NCBI GenBank assembly: GCA_049643885.1
Contig: JBARQV010000029.1
Location: forward strand, 24,997 to 88,996
Origin: Candidatus Omnitrophota bacterium
Lineage (GTDB): Bacteria; Omnitrophota; Gorgyraeia; Tantalellales; Tantalellaceae
Direction: 5' to 3'
DNA: 64,000 nt
The notes below the pieces were generated by a model. The model had not been told where the DNA came from and did no database searches. It saw only the letters and a program-made list of their open reading frames with translations. The translations under genes were made by a program, and so were the position numbers. This document shows, piece after piece, positions 9,036 through 47,509 of the stretch (position 1 is its first letter; each line of letters opens with the position of its first letter).

Positions 9036-9919
9036 TTTTGCGTCTTCCACCTCCGGTGGACCCATACCCATTGTTCAGGATATTCTCTCACGTACTTTTC
9101 CAACAGACCCGTCCAGGCCTGGGTGTATTTCTTCACGTCCTCTTCCGTCCCGCTGCCGGCCGTGACATCTATAGGTTTTTCAACTACAAGCTTATGGGTG
9201 TCGTCTTTCTTTCTCACCACGAACACAGGAACTATCTTTGTCCTGGCCGCCATGGCCAGTTTTACCGGCGCCACCGGCGTGAACGCGGGCTTGCCAAAGA
9301 AATCCACGAATACGCCATCGACGCTTTCAACGTCCTGGTCGGGCACTATGCCGAGGATACTGCCATCCTTCAGGACTTTCAGCATCTTCCTGGGCGACTC
9401 GTCCCGATAGATGACCTTCGCGTCAAACCTGTGGCGCATCCTCGTTATGAATTTGTCGTATTTGTGGAAATATATCCTTCTCCCCACAAGTTTACCCGGA
9501 TAGCCCTTCCTCCTTAGATAAACGCCCAGGAGTTCCCAGTTCCCAAAATGGAATCCCAGGACCAGCGCGCCTTTCCCCTCGGCAAGAACACTATCCAGGT
9601 ATTCCAGCCCTTCATTTTCAGTCACAATATCATCCAGATCTTCAGGTTTCATCGAGTAAAGCTTTATCCACTCAGCACCGTTCTTCGCAAAGTTAGAGAA
9701 AACCTTTCTCGCTATTTTCACATTGGCTTCGTGATCATCGCTGAAAACTTCATCCAGATTAGATATGGCGATCTCACGGTACTTGCGAATGAACGCGAAC
9801 CCGGCTTTCCCGAAAAAATCCGCCATAGCCAGGCTTACTTTTAGCGGAATAAAGCTCATGAAAAAGAACAGGATCTTCAGCAAATAATAAACGTAATATC
9901 TCCTGTATTTTATCTTCAT
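9032..9919 (-). CDS. lpxL: Lipid A biosynthesis late (lauroyl/myristoyl) acyltransferase
   Basis: 295 aa with a C-terminal EQWVWVHRRWK motif typical of the HtrB/LpxL family and an N-terminal membrane anchor. Confidence 0.85.
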   Translation of the reverse strand: MKIKYRRYYVYYLLKILFFFMSFIPLKVSLAMADFFGKAGFAFIRKYREIAISNLDEVFSDDHEANVKIARKVFSNFAKNGAEWIKLYSMKPEDLDDIVTENEGLEYLDSVLAEGKGALVLGFHFGNWELLGVYLRRKGYPGKLVGRRIYFHKYDKFITRMRHRFDAKVIYRDESPRKMLKVLKDGSILGIVPDQDVESVDGVFVDFFGKPAFTPVAPVKLAMAARTKIVPVFVVRKKDDTHKLVVEKPIDVTAGSGTEEDVKKYTQAWTGLLEKYVREYPEQWVWVHRRWKTQK

Positions 9920-10308
9920 CCTCGACGATATTCAGCTTCCACCGATGTGGTTATGCCGCCTCTGACGTTAAAAATACCTTTTACTTTTATCCAGTGCGGC
10001 TTGCAGCTCTTTACCAGGTCATCAAGCATCCTGTTGACGACATGTTCATGAAAAATACCGATACTCCTGAAAGCGACAAGATATTCTTTAAAGGATTTTA
10101 ATTCAACGCATGAAGCGTCCGGCGAATATTCGATGAATATACGCGCGAAATCAGGGAGTCCGGTCTTCGGGCATATGCAGGTGAATTCGGGCGTGTCGAA
10201 TCTTACTACATAATCCTTGTCCTTATATTTATTCTCCCAGGTATCTATTTTAGGAAGCTTGATCTTCCTGATATTTTCCTGCAGTCCTTTGTAACTTTTC
10301 TTTTTCAT
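9916..10308 (-). CDS. queF: NADPH-dependent 7-cyano-7-deazaguanine (preQ0) reductase, type I
   Basis: EFTCICPKTGLPDFA motif. The start is probably MKKKSYKG at 10308, which is preceded by GGAGG (the ORF track extends to 10356). Confidence 0.9.
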   Translation of the reverse strand: MKKKSYKGLQENIRKIKLPKIDTWENKYKDKDYVVRFDTPEFTCICPKTGLPDFARIFIEYSPDASCVELKSFKEYLVAFRSIGIFHEHVVNRMLDDLVKSCKPHWIKVKGIFNVRGGITTSVEAEYRRG

Positions 10309-10370: not shown

Positions 10371-11057
10371 TTATTTGATCCCCAGATCCTTATGAACCTG
10401 TCCAAGAACGATGACATCCCTGGCGGTCTCTTTTTTTATATAATCCCTGAAATATCCCGTCATCTCTTCATCTGGTTCCCTGACTCGGCCATCGACCGGA
10501 GTAACCGGCTGCAAGACCACGGTGACCTTCCCTTTAAGACGCCCGATTATCGATCCCATCCGTTTCACGTCGTCCATGGTAGTGCTGTCGGTAATGACGG
10601 CTTTAGTTATCAGTTCCTTCCGCGACGCTATTTCGGCGAACCTTCGATGCTCGTCCCACAGGGCTCTATTGCCGGTCGAGGACGGGAGTTTAAAATCCAT
10701 GGCTACTACATCCACTTTGTCGACGAGTTGCTCCATCTCGTCCGGTAGCGACCCGTTGGTCTCCAGATAAACGGGTTTGGGCCTGTGGGCCTTATAAAGG
10801 GAAATAAAGCCCTCCAGGAACTCACGGTATAACAACGGTTCCCCGCCGGTGAGGGCCAGTTCACTGTAATCATCACCGAAATCCAGGACCCGGCTGAAAA
10901 GCCCCTCCCGGGTAAGCGACTTATAGCTTTCCAGGATGGTATCGCAAAAAACACAACTTAAGTTGCAGCCGAAAAACCTCACAAAGAGCTGACGGCTCCC
11001 CACATACGGGCCTTCACCCTGGCATGACAAAAAAATCTCAGAAACTTTAGCCTGCAT
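10371..11057 (-). CDS. queE: 7-carboxy-7-deazaguanine synthase (radical SAM)
   Basis: N-terminus FLSCQGEG with a CxxxCxxC-type cluster motif FGCNLSCVFCDT. Confidence 0.9.
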   Translation of the reverse strand: MQAKVSEIFLSCQGEGPYVGSRQLFVRFFGCNLSCVFCDTILESYKSLTREGLFSRVLDFGDDYSELALTGGEPLLYREFLEGFISLYKAHRPKPVYLETNGSLPDEMEQLVDKVDVVAMDFKLPSSTGNRALWDEHRRFAEIASRKELITKAVITDSTTMDDVKRMGSIIGRLKGKVTVVLQPVTPVDGRVREPDEEMTGYFRDYIKKETARDVIVLGQVHKDLGIK

Positions 11058-16295: not shown

Positions 16296-16377
16296 CGGTT
16301 ACACCCCTCCCATATTATGTTTGTTTATGCCATAACATATAGCAAGCGGGTATTTTATCACGCATTCAAACATGATG

Positions 16378-16698
16378 TCAAAGATGTTTTTCCATCTTGG
16401 AAACAAGATCCGCTTTGGGGACCGCTCCCGTTATTTTTTCCACGATTTCGCCGTTCTTGAAGATCGCCAGCGTCGGTATGCTCATGACCTGGTACAGAGA
16501 AGCCGTGAGCCTGGCTTCGTCAACGTTCAGCTTGCAGACCTTGAACTTGCCGTTATATTCTTCGGCTATCTCCCCTATGACAGGGGCGATCATGCGGCAG
16601 GGCATGCACCAATCCGCCCAAAAATCCACCAGAACAGGAACTTCCGCTTCCAGCACTTCCTGTTTGAAATTCGTATCATCGACTATTACTTCCGACAT
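16378..16698 (-). CDS. trxA: Thioredoxin with the variant active site WCMPC
   Basis: 106 aa with a thioredoxin fold. I read the active site [14 protein letters not shown] directly from the codons. Confidence 0.85.
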
Positions 16699-16720
16699 CC
16701 TACTCTCCTTCTGTTCGAGA

Positions 16721-17752: not shown

Positions 17753-17776
17753 CATAAACTTAACATCCAGCATCCA

Positions 17777-17866
17777 GTGTGCGGGTCCTGTCGCTCAGTG
17801 CCCTGCGCGCCTCCGCGCCACTGGCTTGTGCGATGCTCGGACACTGTAGCGCCACCCGCCCCCACG
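17777..17866. repeat. GC-rich structured element, family 1 copy 1 (about 90 bp), in the 5' leader of a GT9 gene.
   Basis: About 90% identical to 19578-19665. It has an imperfect long dyad (GCGGGT...CAGTG/CACTG...ACCCGC) around an internal GCGCG-GAG-GCGCGC stem. Confidence 0.7.
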
Positions 17867-17873
17867 AATCCAA

Positions 17874-17902
17874 ATTCTAAACAATACCAAATTTCTATAC
17901 AA
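17874..17902 (-). promoter_or_regulatory. Candidate sigma-70 promoter TTGTAT-N17-TAGAAT, read on the minus strand, that would transcribe repeat copy 1 as the 5' leader of the GT9 gene.
   Basis: Hexamers and spacing read from the sequence. I have no expression evidence. Confidence 0.35.
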
Positions 17903-18069
17903 AGGTCATCAGGGAATCAGATTACCAGGAAGCAGGATTCTGGATATCAGGCAAGAATTCTTCCTAATAAACTGATCATCTGATATCCTGCCCCCTGATA
18001 CACTGTTAACCTGATATCCCATTTTATATCCAATATCCGCTATCTGTCTTCTGCCTTCTGTCTTCTGAA
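17903..18069. promoter_or_regulatory. Repeat-rich noncoding region: three CCTGATATCC/GGATATCAGG motifs, an AAGAATTCTT palindrome, and the direct repeat CAGAAGACAGA x2 when read on the minus strand.
   Basis: Seen in the sequence. A noncoding gap of about 165 bp is large for this compact region. Confidence 0.3.
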
Positions 18070-28184: not shown

Positions 28185-28192
28185 GTTTTATT

Positions 28193-28231
28193 TGATCCCG
28201 GATCCCGCTTTTGGCGGGTCCGGGATGACAT
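28193..28231. repeat. Palindromic hairpin element, family 2 copy D: TGATCCCGGATCCCGC-TTTTG-GCGGGTCCGGGATGACAT.
   Basis: The conserved termini GATCCCGG / CCGGGATGACAT recur at five or more sites. The inner stem varies with compensatory changes. Confidence 0.7.
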
Positions 28232-28264
28232 ATTTTTATTTTTCGACGAATTATGTGATCCTTC

Positions 28265-29137
28265 TCATGCTCTGGGGTGCGCCTTAATATACATCTCCTT
28301 GATCTTTTGCGTTCCAAGATGCGTGTAGATCTGCGTGGTCGACAGATTCTTATGTCCCAACAGTTCTTGGACGCTTCTCAGGTCGGCTCCGTTATTAAGC
28401 AAATGGGTCGCGAAAGAATGCCGGATCGAATGGGGGGATATTTTCTGTTCTATACTGCACTGCCGTATATATTTGTCCACAATACGACGGACGCTCCTGT
28501 CCGTAAGCCGGGTCCCCAATTTGTTCAGGAAAAGCGCGTTTGGCTTATGATGACCGGCCCGCTGTCTTTCCTTCATATAGCCGTCAAGTGCGCGCTGGGC
28601 CTCCTTCCCCAGCAGGGTAATCCTTTCTTTTTTCCCTTTTCCCCTGACCTTAGCCACGCCGGATATGTGGTCGACATCCTCCTGATTCAGGCCGACCAGC
28701 TCGCTTACCCGCATGCCCGTTGAATACAATATCTCCAAGATAGCCCTGTCCCTCAAGCTTTTGATGTCATCCCCGGCCGGGGCCGTTATAAGTCTTATGA
28801 TCTTCTCGGAATCAAGAAATTCCGGAAGTTTCTTGTCAAGTTTAGGAGTAAAAACACTGTCGGTCGGGTTGGTCTTTATATATTTTTCCCTGGAAAGGAA
28901 ACGGAAGAAAGACCGTATAGCCCCGAGCTTCCTCACCACCGTGCGCTTGGCGTATTTTTTCTGCTTGAGTTCAGCCAGATAACGTCTCAGGTGAAGGTGC
29001 GTTACGCTTTTGGGGCCCTTGTTCTGCAAAAAAAGGGCCAGTTCTTTCAGGTCTGACCTGTAGCATCTCACGGTGTGTTCCGAGTAATTTTTCTCTATCT
29101 TCAGGTAGTTCGAGAATTTCTCGATGAAGCGTTCCAT
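28265..29137 (-). CDS. Tyrosine recombinase XerC/XerD
   Basis: 290 aa with the conserved recombinase residues (R...HxxR...Y). Confidence 0.85.
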   Translation of the reverse strand: MERFIEKFSNYLKIEKNYSEHTVRCYRSDLKELALFLQNKGPKSVTHLHLRRYLAELKQKKYAKRTVVRKLGAIRSFFRFLSREKYIKTNPTDSVFTPKLDKKLPEFLDSEKIIRLITAPAGDDIKSLRDRAILEILYSTGMRVSELVGLNQEDVDHISGVAKVRGKGKKERITLLGKEAQRALDGYMKERQRAGHHKPNALFLNKLGTRLTDRSVRRIVDKYIRQCSIEQKISPHSIRHSFATHLLNNGADLRSVQELLGHKNLSTTQIYTHLGTQKIKEMYIKAHPRA

Positions 29138-35695: not shown

Positions 35696-35840
35696 ATGTC
35701 ATCCCGGACGAGCCCGGAAATAATATGTCATCCCGGAATCGCGCCAAAGGCGCGATATCCGGGACCAAGTAAAATTATTATTTGATCCCCGCTTTCGCGG
35801 GGATGACATACTTCTAAATCGGCGAATTCCGGGATGACAT
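35696..35840. repeat. Composite palindromic element, family 2 copy A (about 145 bp), with four GTCATCCCGG/CCGGGATGACAT termini and nested hairpins.
   Basis: It shares ATCCGGGACCAAGTAAAATTATTAT(T/G)TGATCCC with copy B at 45279-45375, and fills the pilD-aroE intergenic gap up to the aroE stop. Confidence 0.7.
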
Positions 35841-41645: not shown

Positions 41646-41658
41646 GTGAAGTGAGACC

Positions 41659-41691
41659 CAGACTTAGCGAACGCCAGTGAAGCTAAGTCTG
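41659..41691. terminator. Perfect 10-bp-stem hairpin CAGACTTAGC-N13-GCTAAGTCTG downstream of alr. It could be an alr terminator or an insulator placed ahead of the ilv promoter.
   Basis: The inverted repeat is seen directly. The 3' flank on the minus strand is only weakly U-rich. Confidence 0.3.
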
Positions 41692-41700
41692 CCGGCCGAA

Positions 41701-41740
41701 CTTCATCCCGGGCGAGGCCGTTAGGCCGAGTCCCGGGATC
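41701..41740. repeat. Family 2 hairpin element, copy E, in inverted orientation: CTTCATCCCGGGCGAGGCCGTTAGGCCGAGTCCCGGGATC.
   Basis: Its reverse complement matches copy B's GATCCCGGATCTCGGCCTACGGCCTCGCCCGGGATGACAT. Confidence 0.6.
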
Positions 41741-41783
41741 TCTCCTATACATAAAGACAACTTATGAGGACGGGATTCTTCCA

Positions 41784-42924: not shown

Positions 42925-43067
42925 GTGCGGGTCCTGTCGCGAGGTGTCCTGCGCGCATCCGCATTTCATTTGTGCTGTACCCGGGTGCAAGCTATACAGT
43001 GCAGTATATTCCCTACCAGGGCCCCTCCGCCCGGTGTGGATCCTCCCTGTACGGGAACATACTGCAC
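42925..43067. repeat. Family 1 copy 3 in the alr leader: the first 39 bp or so match copies 1 and 2 (GTGCGGGTCCTGTCGC.AGGTGTCCTGCGCGC.TCCGC), followed by a unique highly structured segment.
   Basis: Shared core as stated. The unique part has inverted repeats GTGCAGTATATTCCC / GGGAACATACTGCAC and CTGTA...TACAG. Confidence 0.55.
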
Positions 43068-43120
43068 TATACTCTTTACTCCTTTATGTATGCACTCGAT
43101 CATCGAATACCCAACATCCA

Positions 43121-44264: not shown

Positions 44265-44345
44265 ATGTCATCCCCGCGAAAGCGGGGATCACATAATAAT
44301 CTTACTTGATCCCGGATCCCGCCTGAGGCGGGTCCGGGATGACAT
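44265..44345. repeat. Family 2 element copy C: ATGTCATCCCCGCGAAAGCGGGGATCACAT ... TGATCCCGGATCCCGC-CTGAG-GCGGGTCCGGGATGACAT.
   Basis: Two hairpin modules with the conserved termini, in the tsaE-thiL intergenic region. Confidence 0.7.
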
Positions 44346-45278: not shown

Positions 45279-45375
45279 GATGTCATCCCGGACGAGCCCG
45301 AAGGGCTCGATCCGGGACCAAGTAAAATTATTATGTGATCCCGGATCTCGGCCTACGGCCTCGCCCGGGATGACA
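45279..45375. repeat. Family 2 composite element, copy B (about 97 bp).
   Basis: ATGTCATCCCGGACGAGCCC-GAA-GGGCTCGATCCGGGACCAAGTAAAATTATTATGTGATCCCGGATCTCGGCCTACGGCCTCGCCCGGGATGACAT. It overlaps the mtnA 3' end and the thiL ORF-track start. Confidence 0.7.
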
Positions 45376-46398
45376 TGCTTTACGTATCTTCTCCCTGTCC
45401 GGTTTCCTGATTGTCCCCCGCTCCGTGATGATCGCCGTGATCAATTTCGCCGGTGTCACGTCGAACGCGGGATTCTTTACATCCACATTTTTCGGCATTA
45501 TGTATTCTTTTCCTATTTTCCTGACCTCAGATGCAGGGCGCTCTTCGATGGGTATCGCCGAGCCGCCGGGCAACGCGAGGTCAAATGTAGAAACAGGAGC
45601 CGCGACGTAAAATGGTATCTTGTGATAAGCGGCCAATACGGCCAGGTTGTACGTGCCTATTTTGTTCGCCGTGTCACCGTTAGCGGCGATGCGGTCTGCC
45701 CCCACTATGACGGCATCGAATTCTCTCTTACCCATCAAAGAAGCCGCCATGTTATCGCATATAACCGTTACCGGCACGCCCTCTTTCATCAGTTCCCACG
45801 CGGTAAGTCTGGCCCCCTGCAGCCTTGGCCGCGTCTCGTCGACGTAAACCCTGCGAACCTTCTTTCCGGCAGAGAAAACCACGCCCAGGGCCGTGCCGTA
45901 TCCGCCCGTGGCCAGCCCTCCCGCGTTGCAGTGAGTCAGGACAACCGCTCCTTCCGGTATCAACTTTTTGCCGTATTCTCCTATCCTGCGGCAGACCCGC
46001 GTATCTTCTCGAAGTATCGAATGGGCTTCTTCCAGAATGATCTTCTTGATCCGCTCTACCTTCTTTTCCCTGTTCCTGACAACTACACTGGCCACGCGTT
46101 CAAGGGCCCAAAAAAGATTACGCGCGGTCGGCCGGGCGCCGGCAAGATATTTTATCGTTCTATCCAGGTCCCTGCTAAAAGCGGAAAAAGTCTTCGCCCT
46201 GCTTTTCCTCGCGCCCAAGTATACCCCGTACGCGCCGGCTATGCCGATCGCCGGCGCTCCACGGACCTTCATCTCCCTTATGGCTTCGAACACGTCTTTC
46301 ACATTTCTGCAGGCGATATAACTGGTCTTGCCGGGAAGGAGCCTCTGGTCTATCAACTCTAATTTTGCGTTTTTCCAGCGGATCGGTTCAACCTTCAT
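45331..46398 (-). CDS. mtnA: S-methyl-5-thioribose-1-phosphate isomerase (eIF-2B alpha/beta/delta-like)
   Basis: 355 aa with motif GAPAIGIAGAYG. The last approximately 15 codons run through repeat B. Confidence 0.8.
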   Translation of the reverse strand: MKVEPIRWKNAKLELIDQRLLPGKTSYIACRNVKDVFEAIREMKVRGAPAIGIAGAYGVYLGARKSRAKTFSAFSRDLDRTIKYLAGARPTARNLFWALERVASVVVRNREKKVERIKKIILEEAHSILREDTRVCRRIGEYGKKLIPEGAVVLTHCNAGGLATGGYGTALGVVFSAGKKVRRVYVDETRPRLQGARLTAWELMKEGVPVTVICDNMAASLMGKREFDAVIVGADRIAANGDTANKIGTYNLAVLAAYHKIPFYVAAPVSTFDLALPGGSAIPIEERPASEVRKIGKEYIMPKNVDVKNPAFDVTPAKLITAIITERGTIRKPDREKIRKACHPGRGRRPRSGIT

Positions 46399-46411: not shown

Positions 46412-47509
46412 CTAAGTCCCTATACTCCTGGCAAGAAACACCAGGATGACCATTCCTATGTTATGAGCGATATGCACCGACATGCAGGAAATAAGCGAAC
46501 CCGTCTTCTCATACAAAAAGGCCAGGAGAAGCCCCAGCATCATGATCGGTAAAAATCCAACAACGTGAGTATGTAAAATTGAAAAAACAGCCGATGTAAT
46601 GATCATCGCCCAGAATATACCAAAAGTCTTCTTAATAGCGCCGTACATGAACCCGCGGAAAAAGATCTCCTCGGCGATAGGGCCGAATATAGCCGCGAAA
46701 AGCGTGGACATCAAGAGGATGGTAGGTTCCTTCTCTTTCATAAAGATCTCCACGATAGGCTGGACCGGCGGTTCGTAGGCGAACCATTTGATCACGAAAT
46801 ACGTGACCAGCATTATGCCCAGGAGGATAGGGACAAGCGTCACGTAACCGATCATAGCGTAAAAGACGTTTTTCGCAAACCCTTTCAGGGTAAGGCCGAT
46901 AGCGTTTATACTCTGCCTGTACTTCTTTACGATAAAATAGAATATGACGCTTATCCCGACTACGTTCATCATAGCCGTGTCGAATACCATCCGGAAATTT
47001 TCGTTCTTCAGGATCGGGATCCACCGGGCTATCATAGCCTGGAGGATCACGAAAACATACCCGAAAGACAGGAATATCAAGGTGACCCGGACGACATCGG
47101 CTACCGTCCACTTCGCGGATTCCGGCCTGTTAGTCCCGATATCAAGAGGTTTACGGCGCAGCCATCTGCCGAGGAAATATCCATCCAAAAGAAGGCCCAT
47201 GAATATCACAAAAAGTATGAAAAGGTTAAGTACAGCTACGAAAAAGTATAACCGCGGATCCGTCTTGGCCAGTTCTTCTATTCTTTTCTCCCTTTCCTTG
47301 GACGCTTCATCGGAATAGTAGTCTTTTTCTTCCTGGGGAGCAGGCTTCTCTTCGACCTGCTGCTGTACGACCGTCGGCTCCTCAATGCTCTCATCAGACT
47401 CTTTGCCCACAAAAACCGCCGTGTTTATCAATATGATAAACACGACCAGAACGGCGTATAATTTGTTTTTCCTTATTATTCCCAAGATCTTTCTAAGAAA
47501 CATATTCAA
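46412..47509 (-). CDS. CPBP family (CAAX/Abi) intramembrane glutamic metalloprotease
   Basis: Motifs EExxFRG, FxxxH and HxxxN (AEEIFFRGF, FSILHT, HIAHN) across multiple TM helices. Confidence 0.8.
   Translation of the reverse strand: MNMFLRKILGIIRKNKLYAVLVVFIILINTAVFVGKESDESIEEPTVVQQQVEEKPAPQEEKDYYSDEASKEREKRIEELAKTDPRLYFFVAVLNLFILFVIFMGLLLDGYFLGRWLRRKPLDIGTNRPESAKWTVADVVRVTLIFLSFGYVFVILQAMIARWIPILKNENFRMVFDTAMMNVVGISVIFYFIVKKYRQSINAIGLTLKGFAKNVFYAMIGYVTLVPILLGIMLVTYFVIKWFAYEPPVQPIVEIFMKEKEPTILLMSTLFAAIFGPIAEEIFFRGFMYGAIKKTFGIFWAMIITSAVFSILHTHVVGFLPIMMLGLLLAFLYEKTGSLISCMSVHIAHNIGMVILVFLARSIGT

Follow-up and report, generated by a model that had tools for sequence, protein, structure and literature searches.

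NTS-like oriented hairpin repeats at gene junctions of a Candidatus Omnitrophota bacterium

The window analysed here, a 64,000-nucleotide (64-kb) stretch of a Candidatus Omnitrophota metagenome-assembled genome (MAG; GCA_049643885.1, contig JBARQV010000029.1, positions 24,997 to 88,996), carries about ten copies of one oriented hairpin unit at five intergenic sites, 28189-28232 (site 1), 35696-35840 (site 2), 44265-44345 (site 3), 45280-45376 (site 4) and 41700-41742 (site 5). These repeats are probably oriented hairpins of the NTS and Ssn-related motif (SRM) class, recognised by a nuclease of the Ssn family, which were inserted into gene junctions. The assignment is based on the sequence architecture, on the conservation of the critical bases and on the presence of the same variant beside ssn genes elsewhere, not on a cognate gene in this organism, of which about 74 kb were read (the window and other contigs, the same species being present in several assemblies). 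All five sites are located in the approximately 2.4 kb of intergenic DNA within a tightly packed, single-strand gene array and fall between minus-strand genes, namely xerC/waaA (site 1), aroE/pilD (site 2), thiL/tsaE (site 3), mtnA/thiL (site 4) and alr/ilvB (site 5), which confirms both the sites and the gene names proposed in an earlier note on this DNA.

Read on its own strand, the unit opens with (T)ATGTCA and closes with (T/C)CA(A/C)(A/G)T; between these, the two complementary arms of an outer stem, either TCCCGGA/TCCGGGA or TCCCCGC/GCGGGGA, enclose a top part. The short form, ATGTCATCCCCGCGAAAGCGGGGATCA, is found at 35781-35809 (-) and 44265-44294 (+). In the long form, a variable inner stem-loop sits on the 7-bp outer stem TCCCGGA/TCCGGGA and one A bulges out 3' of it; this form is found at 28189-28232 (-), 35725-35765 (+), 44306-44345 (-), 45280-45318 (+) and 45333-45376 (-), with a diverged copy at 41700-41742 (+). 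In every complete unit ATGTCA directly precedes the stem, the diverged site-5 copy reading CTTCA at this position, and a cytosine stands just 3' of the palindrome in all units (...GGGA(T/C)-C-A or ...GGGAT-C-T). The 7-bp outer stem and these flanks are constant; in the copy at 41700, the outer arms previously described as constant are diverged (ACTTCAT...GGGATCTC). Sites 2, 3 and 4 are inverted doublets in which the ATGTCAT ends point outward and an A+T-rich linker, CAAGTAARATTATTAT, lies in the centre. This shared linker had been given a length of 35 bp; it measures 16 nt (25 nt with the adjacent stem) and is present in all three doublets.

The occurrence of these sequences is far above chance expectation. 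Exact GGGATGACAT occurs ten times in the window, and with up to one mismatch 16 occurrences were found compared to 4.1 expected, a number reached by none of 100 shuffles. Moreover, the pattern TCCCGGA-N(6-36)-TCCGGGA was found four times (0.06 expected from shuffles) and the linker CAAGTAARATTATTAT three times (0 expected). Folded as single-stranded DNA (ssDNA), the units and doublets are considerably more stable than their shuffled counterparts, with z -5.4 to -9.7 for sites 1-4 and z -2.9 for the diverged site 5, and with DNA fold energies of units and sites between -13 and -46 kcal/mol. A scan of the whole window did not reveal further convincing members, and scans with Rfam and for tRNAs returned no match.

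Chenal et al. (Nat Commun 2025, PMC11893778) described the Neisseria NTS, CGTCATTCCCGCGMAVGCGGGAATCYRG, as an oriented version of dRS3, defined the broader class of SRM, and studied SsnA, a 94-aa single-domain GIY-YIG protein which binds the motif only as ssDNA and on one strand only, cuts a few nucleotides upstream of it and does not bind RNA. In the same work the three bases 5' of the palindrome were most important for cutting and the C directly 3' most important for binding, and 81% of SRM-rich genomes contained an ssnA homologue of the single-domain GIY-YIG type (cd10448) (PMC11893778). Apart from one stem pair, in which the change is compensated, and from the 3' flank, the window short form, TGTCATCCCCGCGAAAGCGGGGATCA, agrees with the NTS. 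It has in common with NTS and SRM the oriented GTCAT, followed by a G+C-rich palindrome whose loop is of the GAAA/GAAG type, and a C directly 3' of the palindrome. The two bases or base groups identified by mutagenesis, GTC on the 5' side and C on the 3' side, are kept in the window units, with the site-5 copy (CTTCA) diverged. Furthermore, NTS and SRM are 20-50 nt inverted repeats able to form an ssDNA hairpin, as are the window units (folds: z -2.9 to -9.7), and are spread over many phyla, as are units of this type. NTS and SRM occur in many copies per genome, nearly all of them outside coding sequence; for the window species, about ten units at five sites, all between genes, were found in 74 kb. 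The element dRS3 of pathogenic Neisseria (ATTCCC-N8-GGGAAT), known for more than two decades, has the same type of palindromic core (window short form: ATCCCC-N8-GGGGAT), but it is a bare 20-bp palindrome without orientation; because the window units carry oriented GTC/C flanks, we consider them NTS-like rather than dRS3-like. The earlier note had not recognised the consensus as a described family, which has to be corrected, since it is of the NTS/dRS3 'Ssn-related motif' type (PMC11893778).

The window units also deviate from the published class in several respects. Their 3' flank is TCA or CCA and not TCY, the long forms contain a nested variable inner hairpin and a bulged A and thereby go beyond the 0-5 nt loop of the published search string, and fixed inverted doublets with a conserved linker are present, which are REPIN-like. 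In addition, the Omnitrophota are not named in the main text of PMC11893778, and a cognate ssn gene was not located in the approximately 74 kb of the window species. Overall, the kind of element is known (dRS3, NTS/SRM-Ssn); new are the phylum, the variant escaping the search string, the two-tier hairpin with bulged A, the doublets with conserved linker and the empty-site evidence for insertion.

In other genomes, units of this type are widespread. A scan with a degenerate pattern, using one genome per species, listed at least 120 matches; the pattern was loose and yields no per-genome counts. Nearly all matches listed, from many phyla, are perfect hairpins of the form GTCA-stem-loop-stem-TCC, and near-perfect GTCA-hairpin-TC(C/T/A) units are among the matches listed for Alpha-, Beta- and Gammaproteobacteria, Fibrobacter, Omnitrophota, Planctomycetota, groups of the Candidate Phyla Radiation, Bacteroidota, Chloroflexota and Rickettsia. 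Many 8-kb loci hold several units with different stems (TCCCCGC, TTCCCGC, TCCCGGG, TGCCGG). A Rickettsia endosymbiont of Polydrusus tereticollis (L028) has ten GTCA-hairpin-TCCAG units in 8 kb, mostly ATGTCATTCCCGCGAAGGCGGGAATCCAGAAA, a very high density that is consistent with a remark on symbionts in PMC11893778. A second scan covered metagenomes with the lineage-typical 3' YCA flank. One metagenome lineage (L129, L135, L144, L150, L182, L183, L214, L227, L235; JGI contigs Ga0163203_*, Ga0208325_* and others) contains long-form units very like those of the window, with TCCCGGA outer stem, bulged A and TCACAT flank; as in the window, these units form doublets, with an A+T-rich linker of about 25 nt and many different inner stems.

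GTCA-type hairpins often adjoin small GIY-YIG genes, and with this background we searched the fetched loci for Ssn. Ssn-like open reading frames (ORFs) immediately adjoin units in these loci: a hidden Markov model trained on three seed ORFs identified 11 such ORFs in the loci centred on units, which comprise 1.67 Mb (ten with 103-177 bits and one weak match with 43 bits), and all three of those scanned against Pfam match PF01541. The association was recovered in an unbiased clustering, for which all ORFs of 70 aa or more (about 10,000, from 240 loci with 500 units) were compared with one another by blastp, and where the Ssn-like GIY-YIG proteins were the only recurrent small family and, barring a low-complexity artefact, formed the most widely recurring cluster (11 loci). 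Eight of the 11 members lie within 200 bp of a unit, compared to 17% of all ORFs (binomial, about 1e-4). Around most ssn genes, the closest unit upstream points in the same direction as the gene and the closest one downstream is inverted, so that the GTCAT ends point outward, with arrays on both sides; the window doublets have the same polarity as these unit-ssn-unit modules with their ~95-aa single-domain GIY-YIG genes. In locus L157, ATGTCATCCCCGCGAAGGCGGGGATCA, which is almost the window short form including the TCA flank, lies 38 bp from an Ssn ORF; in L134 and L219 units with a 3' TCA flank likewise adjoin Ssn ORFs, and in an Omnitrophota MAG (L019) an ssn gene is accompanied by nine units within 8 kb. 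A homologue search with the L019 Ssn gave more than 7,500 clusters at E <= 1e-20, which makes this a very large family. A sequence search of the PDB with an Ssn ORF gave only a weak and uninformative match (UPF0213 protein 1zg2, E 0.0085).

The earlier note had compared the repeats to REP/BIME-like or MITE-like (miniature inverted-repeat transposable element) structured intergenic repeats, a description that holds, and had suggested a REP-associated tyrosine transposase (RAYT) as partner, which the clustering does not support. REP, BIME and REPIN elements are intergenic imperfect palindromes, often arranged as inverted doublets foldable into one long hairpin, act as ssDNA without target duplication and have non-autonomous copies far from the enzyme gene. 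The intergenic sites, the bulged hairpins, the absence of target duplication and the REPIN-like inverted doublets (46-nt arms, 80% complementarity) would suit elements spread by a RAYT of the IS200/IS605 Y1 family, and the parallel between Ssn and REP/BIME-RAYT is drawn in the Ssn paper itself (PMC11893778). We nevertheless regard this explanation as very unlikely. The clustering yielded neither a transposase-like cluster nor a RAYT-like or Y1 family among the ~10,000 ORFs around the 500 units, while GIY-YIG proteins recur, and no such gene is present in the called-gene tables around the window. REPs have a conserved GTAG-type tetranucleotide at the foot of the hairpin, whereas the window hairpins have 5' GTCA(T) and 3' TC(A/C/T) at their foot; the flank thus differs, as does the associated enzyme class, GIY-YIG instead of HUH/Y1 transposases. 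IS200/IS605 elements and PATEs resemble the repeats in their bulged subterminal hairpins, recognition of one strand, lack of duplication and miniature derivatives that keep only the ends, but neither TnpA nor TnpB is found here, and both ends are inverted copies of one unit instead of distinct left and right ends.

Comparison with relatives identifies the window copies as insertions. Syntenic contigs of three related Omnitrophota were found through their ThiL, which is 66-69% identical. In the relative L249 the gene pairs mtnA/thiL, thiL/tsaE and aroE/pilD overlap or abut and no units are present in 11 kb; its alr-ilvB spacer aligns across the conserved promoter but lacks the block of approximately 94 nt which holds site 5. 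In-silico removal of the 97-bp doublet at 45280-45376 joins ...AAAGC to CTAGTGG, after which MtnA ends with ...PDREKIRKA* and, further on, a Shine-Dalgarno-like GGAG precedes the ThiL start as annotated. This ending resembles the MtnA C-termini of relatives (...PDRKKIRKTCGK and ...PDRRKIAKLVGG), and because excision restores a relative-like stop, the last 14 residues of the 355-aa MtnA are element-derived. With regard to the gene-end overlaps reported before, the MtnA C-terminus is thus indeed encoded by the element, while the supposed N-terminal read-through of thiL and tsaE is an effect of choosing the longest ORF (deposited ThiL: 299 aa; TsaE called at 151-158 aa). Given the overlapping junctions in the relative and the restored MtnA stop, the copies of the window entered very short or overlapping gene junctions by insertion, and this occurred without target duplication: none was found in the flanks at any site, which differ from each other (GTAAAGC|..|CTAGTGG, GAAAAT|..|ACATCC, AGAAGT|..|ATTATT).

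The missing duplication also bears on the possibility that the doublets are MITEs of an insertion sequence with a DDE transposase, with ATGTCATCCCGG... as terminal inverted repeats. The terminal inverted repeats around a short A+T-rich interior and the identity of about 95% between the three doublets outside the inner stems would be in line with such elements, yet we consider this origin highly improbable, as sites 1 and 5 consist of solitary units, each 'terminal repeat' forms a hairpin in its own right that different phyla conserve as an independent unit, no recurrent transposase family is found near the units and not one of the sites shows a target-site duplication.

Different hairpin repeats are found at the same junctions in other Omnitrophota. 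In L250 (GCA_030617085.1), an inverted doublet with 24-bp arms of a different SRM-type unit, GTCATCCTGAGCGAAGCGAAGGATCTC, is located at the mtnA-thiL junction (9915-9986), which suggests that this junction was struck independently by a different variant. In L251 (GCA_043822245.1), both the mtnA-thiL and the thiL-tsaE junction (9850-10000 and 10900-11025) are occupied by a hairpin repeat of another, unrelated family (CCCCCTTTGAAAAAGGGGG-like). The junctions have been hit independently in different lineages.

Since all copies lie between co-directional genes and the hairpins would form in RNA as well, we also considered that they are RNA-level elements, i.e., hairpins retained by selection in polycistronic mRNA because they stabilise 3' ends, serve in processing, terminate transcription or insulate transcription units. 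Stabilisation of upstream mRNA is known for the REPs of E. coli, and the unit of site 5 has the alr stop on one side and a strong, conserved promoter of ilvB (TTGACA-17-TATACT) on the other. An RNA-level origin is unlikely, however. None of the units is followed by a T/U tail on either strand and a terminator scan calls none, so that a role as intrinsic terminator is unsupported; the orientation relative to transcription is mixed (site 1 sense, site 5 antisense, doublets both), and Rfam contains no match. The overlapping genes without element in L249 further indicate that the junctions do not need the elements, and the asymmetric conserved flanks, together with the association with a nuclease that binds DNA but not RNA, point to DNA. 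Stabilisation of mRNA or insulation is possible as a side effect, with nothing pointing to it as the origin of the elements.

Across all loci, 96 distinct inner segments enclosed by the outer stems TCCCGG and CCGGGA were collected; their sequences are unrelated, but most of them fold on their own, with a median z of -3.3 and 64% below -2. In the window, the doublets at 35725-35809 and 44345-44265 are about 95% identical outside the inner stem, while their inner stems are unrelated and differ in length. The earlier proposal that the inner stem varies and yet remains paired is therefore correct. The pattern resembles the replacement of modules, or rewriting from a template, more than compensatory mutation in steps. 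One of the stems proposed before, 'TCGGCC../..GGCCTCG', is not fully complementary; it consists of GGCC/GGCC flanked by two non-Watson-Crick positions, which we read as tandem G.A pairs. Several inner parts are mini-hairpins of the GCGAAGC/GCGAAAGC type or contain tandem G.A mismatches, both of which are especially stable in DNA and therefore fit a role at the DNA level. Almost identical doublets with unrelated inner stems would be explained if the inner stem were rewritten by a templated, self-complementing process such as fold-back or template switching; it is conceivable, though rather doubtful, that the units are two-tier hairpins with a fixed protein-recognition base and an inner stem rewritten in this manner, and that the doublets are non-autonomous transposons copied or moved by Ssn via a single-stranded intermediate.

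Several observations weigh against the assignment of the window repeats to the NTS/SRM class and their recognition by an Ssn nuclease. Neither the 64-kb window nor the remaining DNA read from the species (~74 kb in total; loci L001, L002, L243-L257) contains an ssn gene, and an extra 10 kb beyond one end of the window has neither units nor ssn. Only five sites, all within 18 kb, were found in these 74 kb. The published SRM search string, HGTCWYN(0-2)YYVSBRHN(0-5)WNVSBRGN(0-2)RNCYNB (PMC11893778), gives no hit in the window, where 0.2 would be expected; its last three positions have to be omitted for the two short forms to match, and the long forms fail because their nested inner hairpin is larger than the loop allowed. 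This string is an operational search tool and not a functional definition. The Neisseria enzyme was inactive when the palindrome sequence was changed with the structure kept (PMC11893778), and recognition of the window variant by some Ssn is hence an extrapolation. Moreover, transposition by Ssn has never been shown and is raised by the authors only as a hypothesis (PMC11893778). Finally, the elements at sites 1, 3 and 4 are identical in all assemblies of the species compared, and thus there is no sign of current activity.

The individual copies differ in their completeness. At site 1, the single long-form unit at 28189-28232 (-), TATGTCA-TCCCGGA-CCCGC(CAAAA)GCGGG-A-TCCGGGA-TCAAAT, lies between the xerC stop and the waaA start (fold -15.1 kcal/mol, z -5.4) and is identical across seven assemblies of the species. 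Site 2 is a composite, in which the complete doublet 35725-35809 is nested between two partial arms. The outer left arm at 35696-35724 (+), ATGTCATCCCGGACGAGCCCGGAAATAAT, is a partial unit without the 3' hairpin half and pairs in the whole-site fold with the outer right arm at 35810-35840 (-), the partial unit ATGTCATCCCGGAATTCGCCGATTTAGAAGT, whose first base overlaps the aroE stop codon. Between them lie a complete long-form unit at 35725-35765 (+), ATGTCA-TCCCGGA-ATCGCGCC(AAA)GGCGCGAT-A-TCCGGGA-CC, with an inner stem of z -9.8, the A+T-rich linker CAAGTAAAATTATTAT at 35766-35781 (+; three copies in the window, 0 expected), and the short-form unit at 35781-35809 (-), ATGTCA-TCCCCGC(GAAA)GCGGGGA-TCAAAT, which is the copy nearest to the Neisseria NTS and fits the SRM string minus its last three positions.

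The site-3 doublet comprises the short-form unit ATGTCATCCCCGCGAAAGCGGGGATCACAT at 44265-44294 (+), the linker CAAGTAAGATTATTAT at 44293-44308 (-) and the long-form unit ATGTCA-TCCCGGA-CCCGCC(TCA)GGCGGG-A-TCCGGGA-TCAAGT at 44306-44345 (-), the whole site folding with -29.2 kcal/mol (z -7.0). At site 4, the long-form unit ATGTCA-TCCCGGA-CGAGCCC(GAA)GGGCTCG-A-TCCGGGA-CC at 45280-45318 (+) is joined through the linker CAAGTAAAATTATTAT at 45319-45334 (+), which holds the present mtnA stop codon (TAA, minus strand, 45331-45333), to a long-form unit with imperfect inner stem at 45333-45376 (-), ATGTCA-TCCCGGG-CGAGGCC(GTA)GGCCGAG-A-TCCGGGA-TCACAT, encoding the 14 terminal MtnA residues (CHPGRGRRPRSGIT). 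The diverged single unit of site 5 at 41700-41742 (+), ACTTCA-TCCCGGG-CGAGGCC(GTTA)GGCCGAG-T-CCCGGGA-TCTC (z -2.9), lies upstream of the ilvB promoter in the ~94-nt block absent from L249. A second, unrelated hairpin at 41656-41692, AGACTTAGC-13 nt-GCTAAGTCT, adjoins it within this block, just upstream of the conserved promoter (TTGACA-17-TATACT, 41645-41617).

Two further candidates in the window were rejected. On the antisense strand of xerC, 28762-28785 reads ATGTCATCCCCGGCCGGGGCC, the exact family 10-mer (at 28764) followed by a loop-less palindrome; it was not counted as a member because it does not form a stable hairpin (z = 0.0), and with XerC being of normal length the 10-mer is probably there by chance. 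Close to the 3' end of a CPBP-protease gene, GTCATCCTGG...CCAGGA at 46426-46450 (-), i.e., GTCA-TCCTGG...CCAGGA, lacks the 3' TC flank, is coding and is probably not a member.

Elsewhere in the window, the 197-bp alr-tsaB spacer contains an inverted repeat at 42995-43071 with 27-nt arms, 81% complementary and 23 nt apart, which does not belong to this family. The largest gaps without a long ORF, 16296-16720 (425 nt) and 17774-18069 (296 nt), have no Rfam match at the gathering threshold. Every long ORF of the window (1-64000) is on the minus strand and the plus-strand GC skew is uniformly negative (-0.09 to -0.20), and the entire window seems to belong to a single replichore, its genes running in the direction of replication. 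In L244, L245, L256 and L257, contigs end approximately 100-250 bp from elements (e.g., ERZ23498717 scaffold_24 starts 90 bp from the site-1 unit), and the repeats may fragment the MAG assemblies of the species.

Extrapolating from the Neisseria system, the hairpin would form when the strand carrying the unit becomes single-stranded, e.g., during replication, DNA uptake or cruciform extrusion, and would then be bound by a single-domain Ssn GIY-YIG nuclease of approximately 95 aa, which would read the outer stem, the 5' GTC and the 3' C and cut a few nucleotides upstream. Being A+T-rich and placed midway in a long inverted repeat, the linker would make local melting or extrusion easier. The doublets may be regarded as the layout unit -> ssn <- unit minus the gene, i.e., as non-autonomous MITE/REPIN-like derivatives that would be propagated in trans by an Ssn enzyme encoded elsewhere. 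By this analogy we infer that an Ssn enzyme of this organism would bind and cut the units and that Ssn would cause their spread.

The Ssn/SRM system was first described in 2025. The present repeats place it in the Omnitrophota, a phylum known from MAGs and absent from the text of the 2025 paper, and indicate that the published SRM string misses real relatives, namely forms with a 3' TCA flank and nested hairpins. For the genome of this bacterium, a precisely bounded element splits gene pairs that overlap in a relative, and one copy rewrites the C-terminus of a protein; in addition, the units create spurious ORF extensions and probably break MAG contigs. The empty-site evidence is of the kind needed to test the mobility of SRM and unit-ssn-unit modules as insertion-sequence-like elements. 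If Ssn indeed cuts outside the outward GTCAT ends and mobilises the doublets, this would constitute a DNA transposition mechanism without described precedent.

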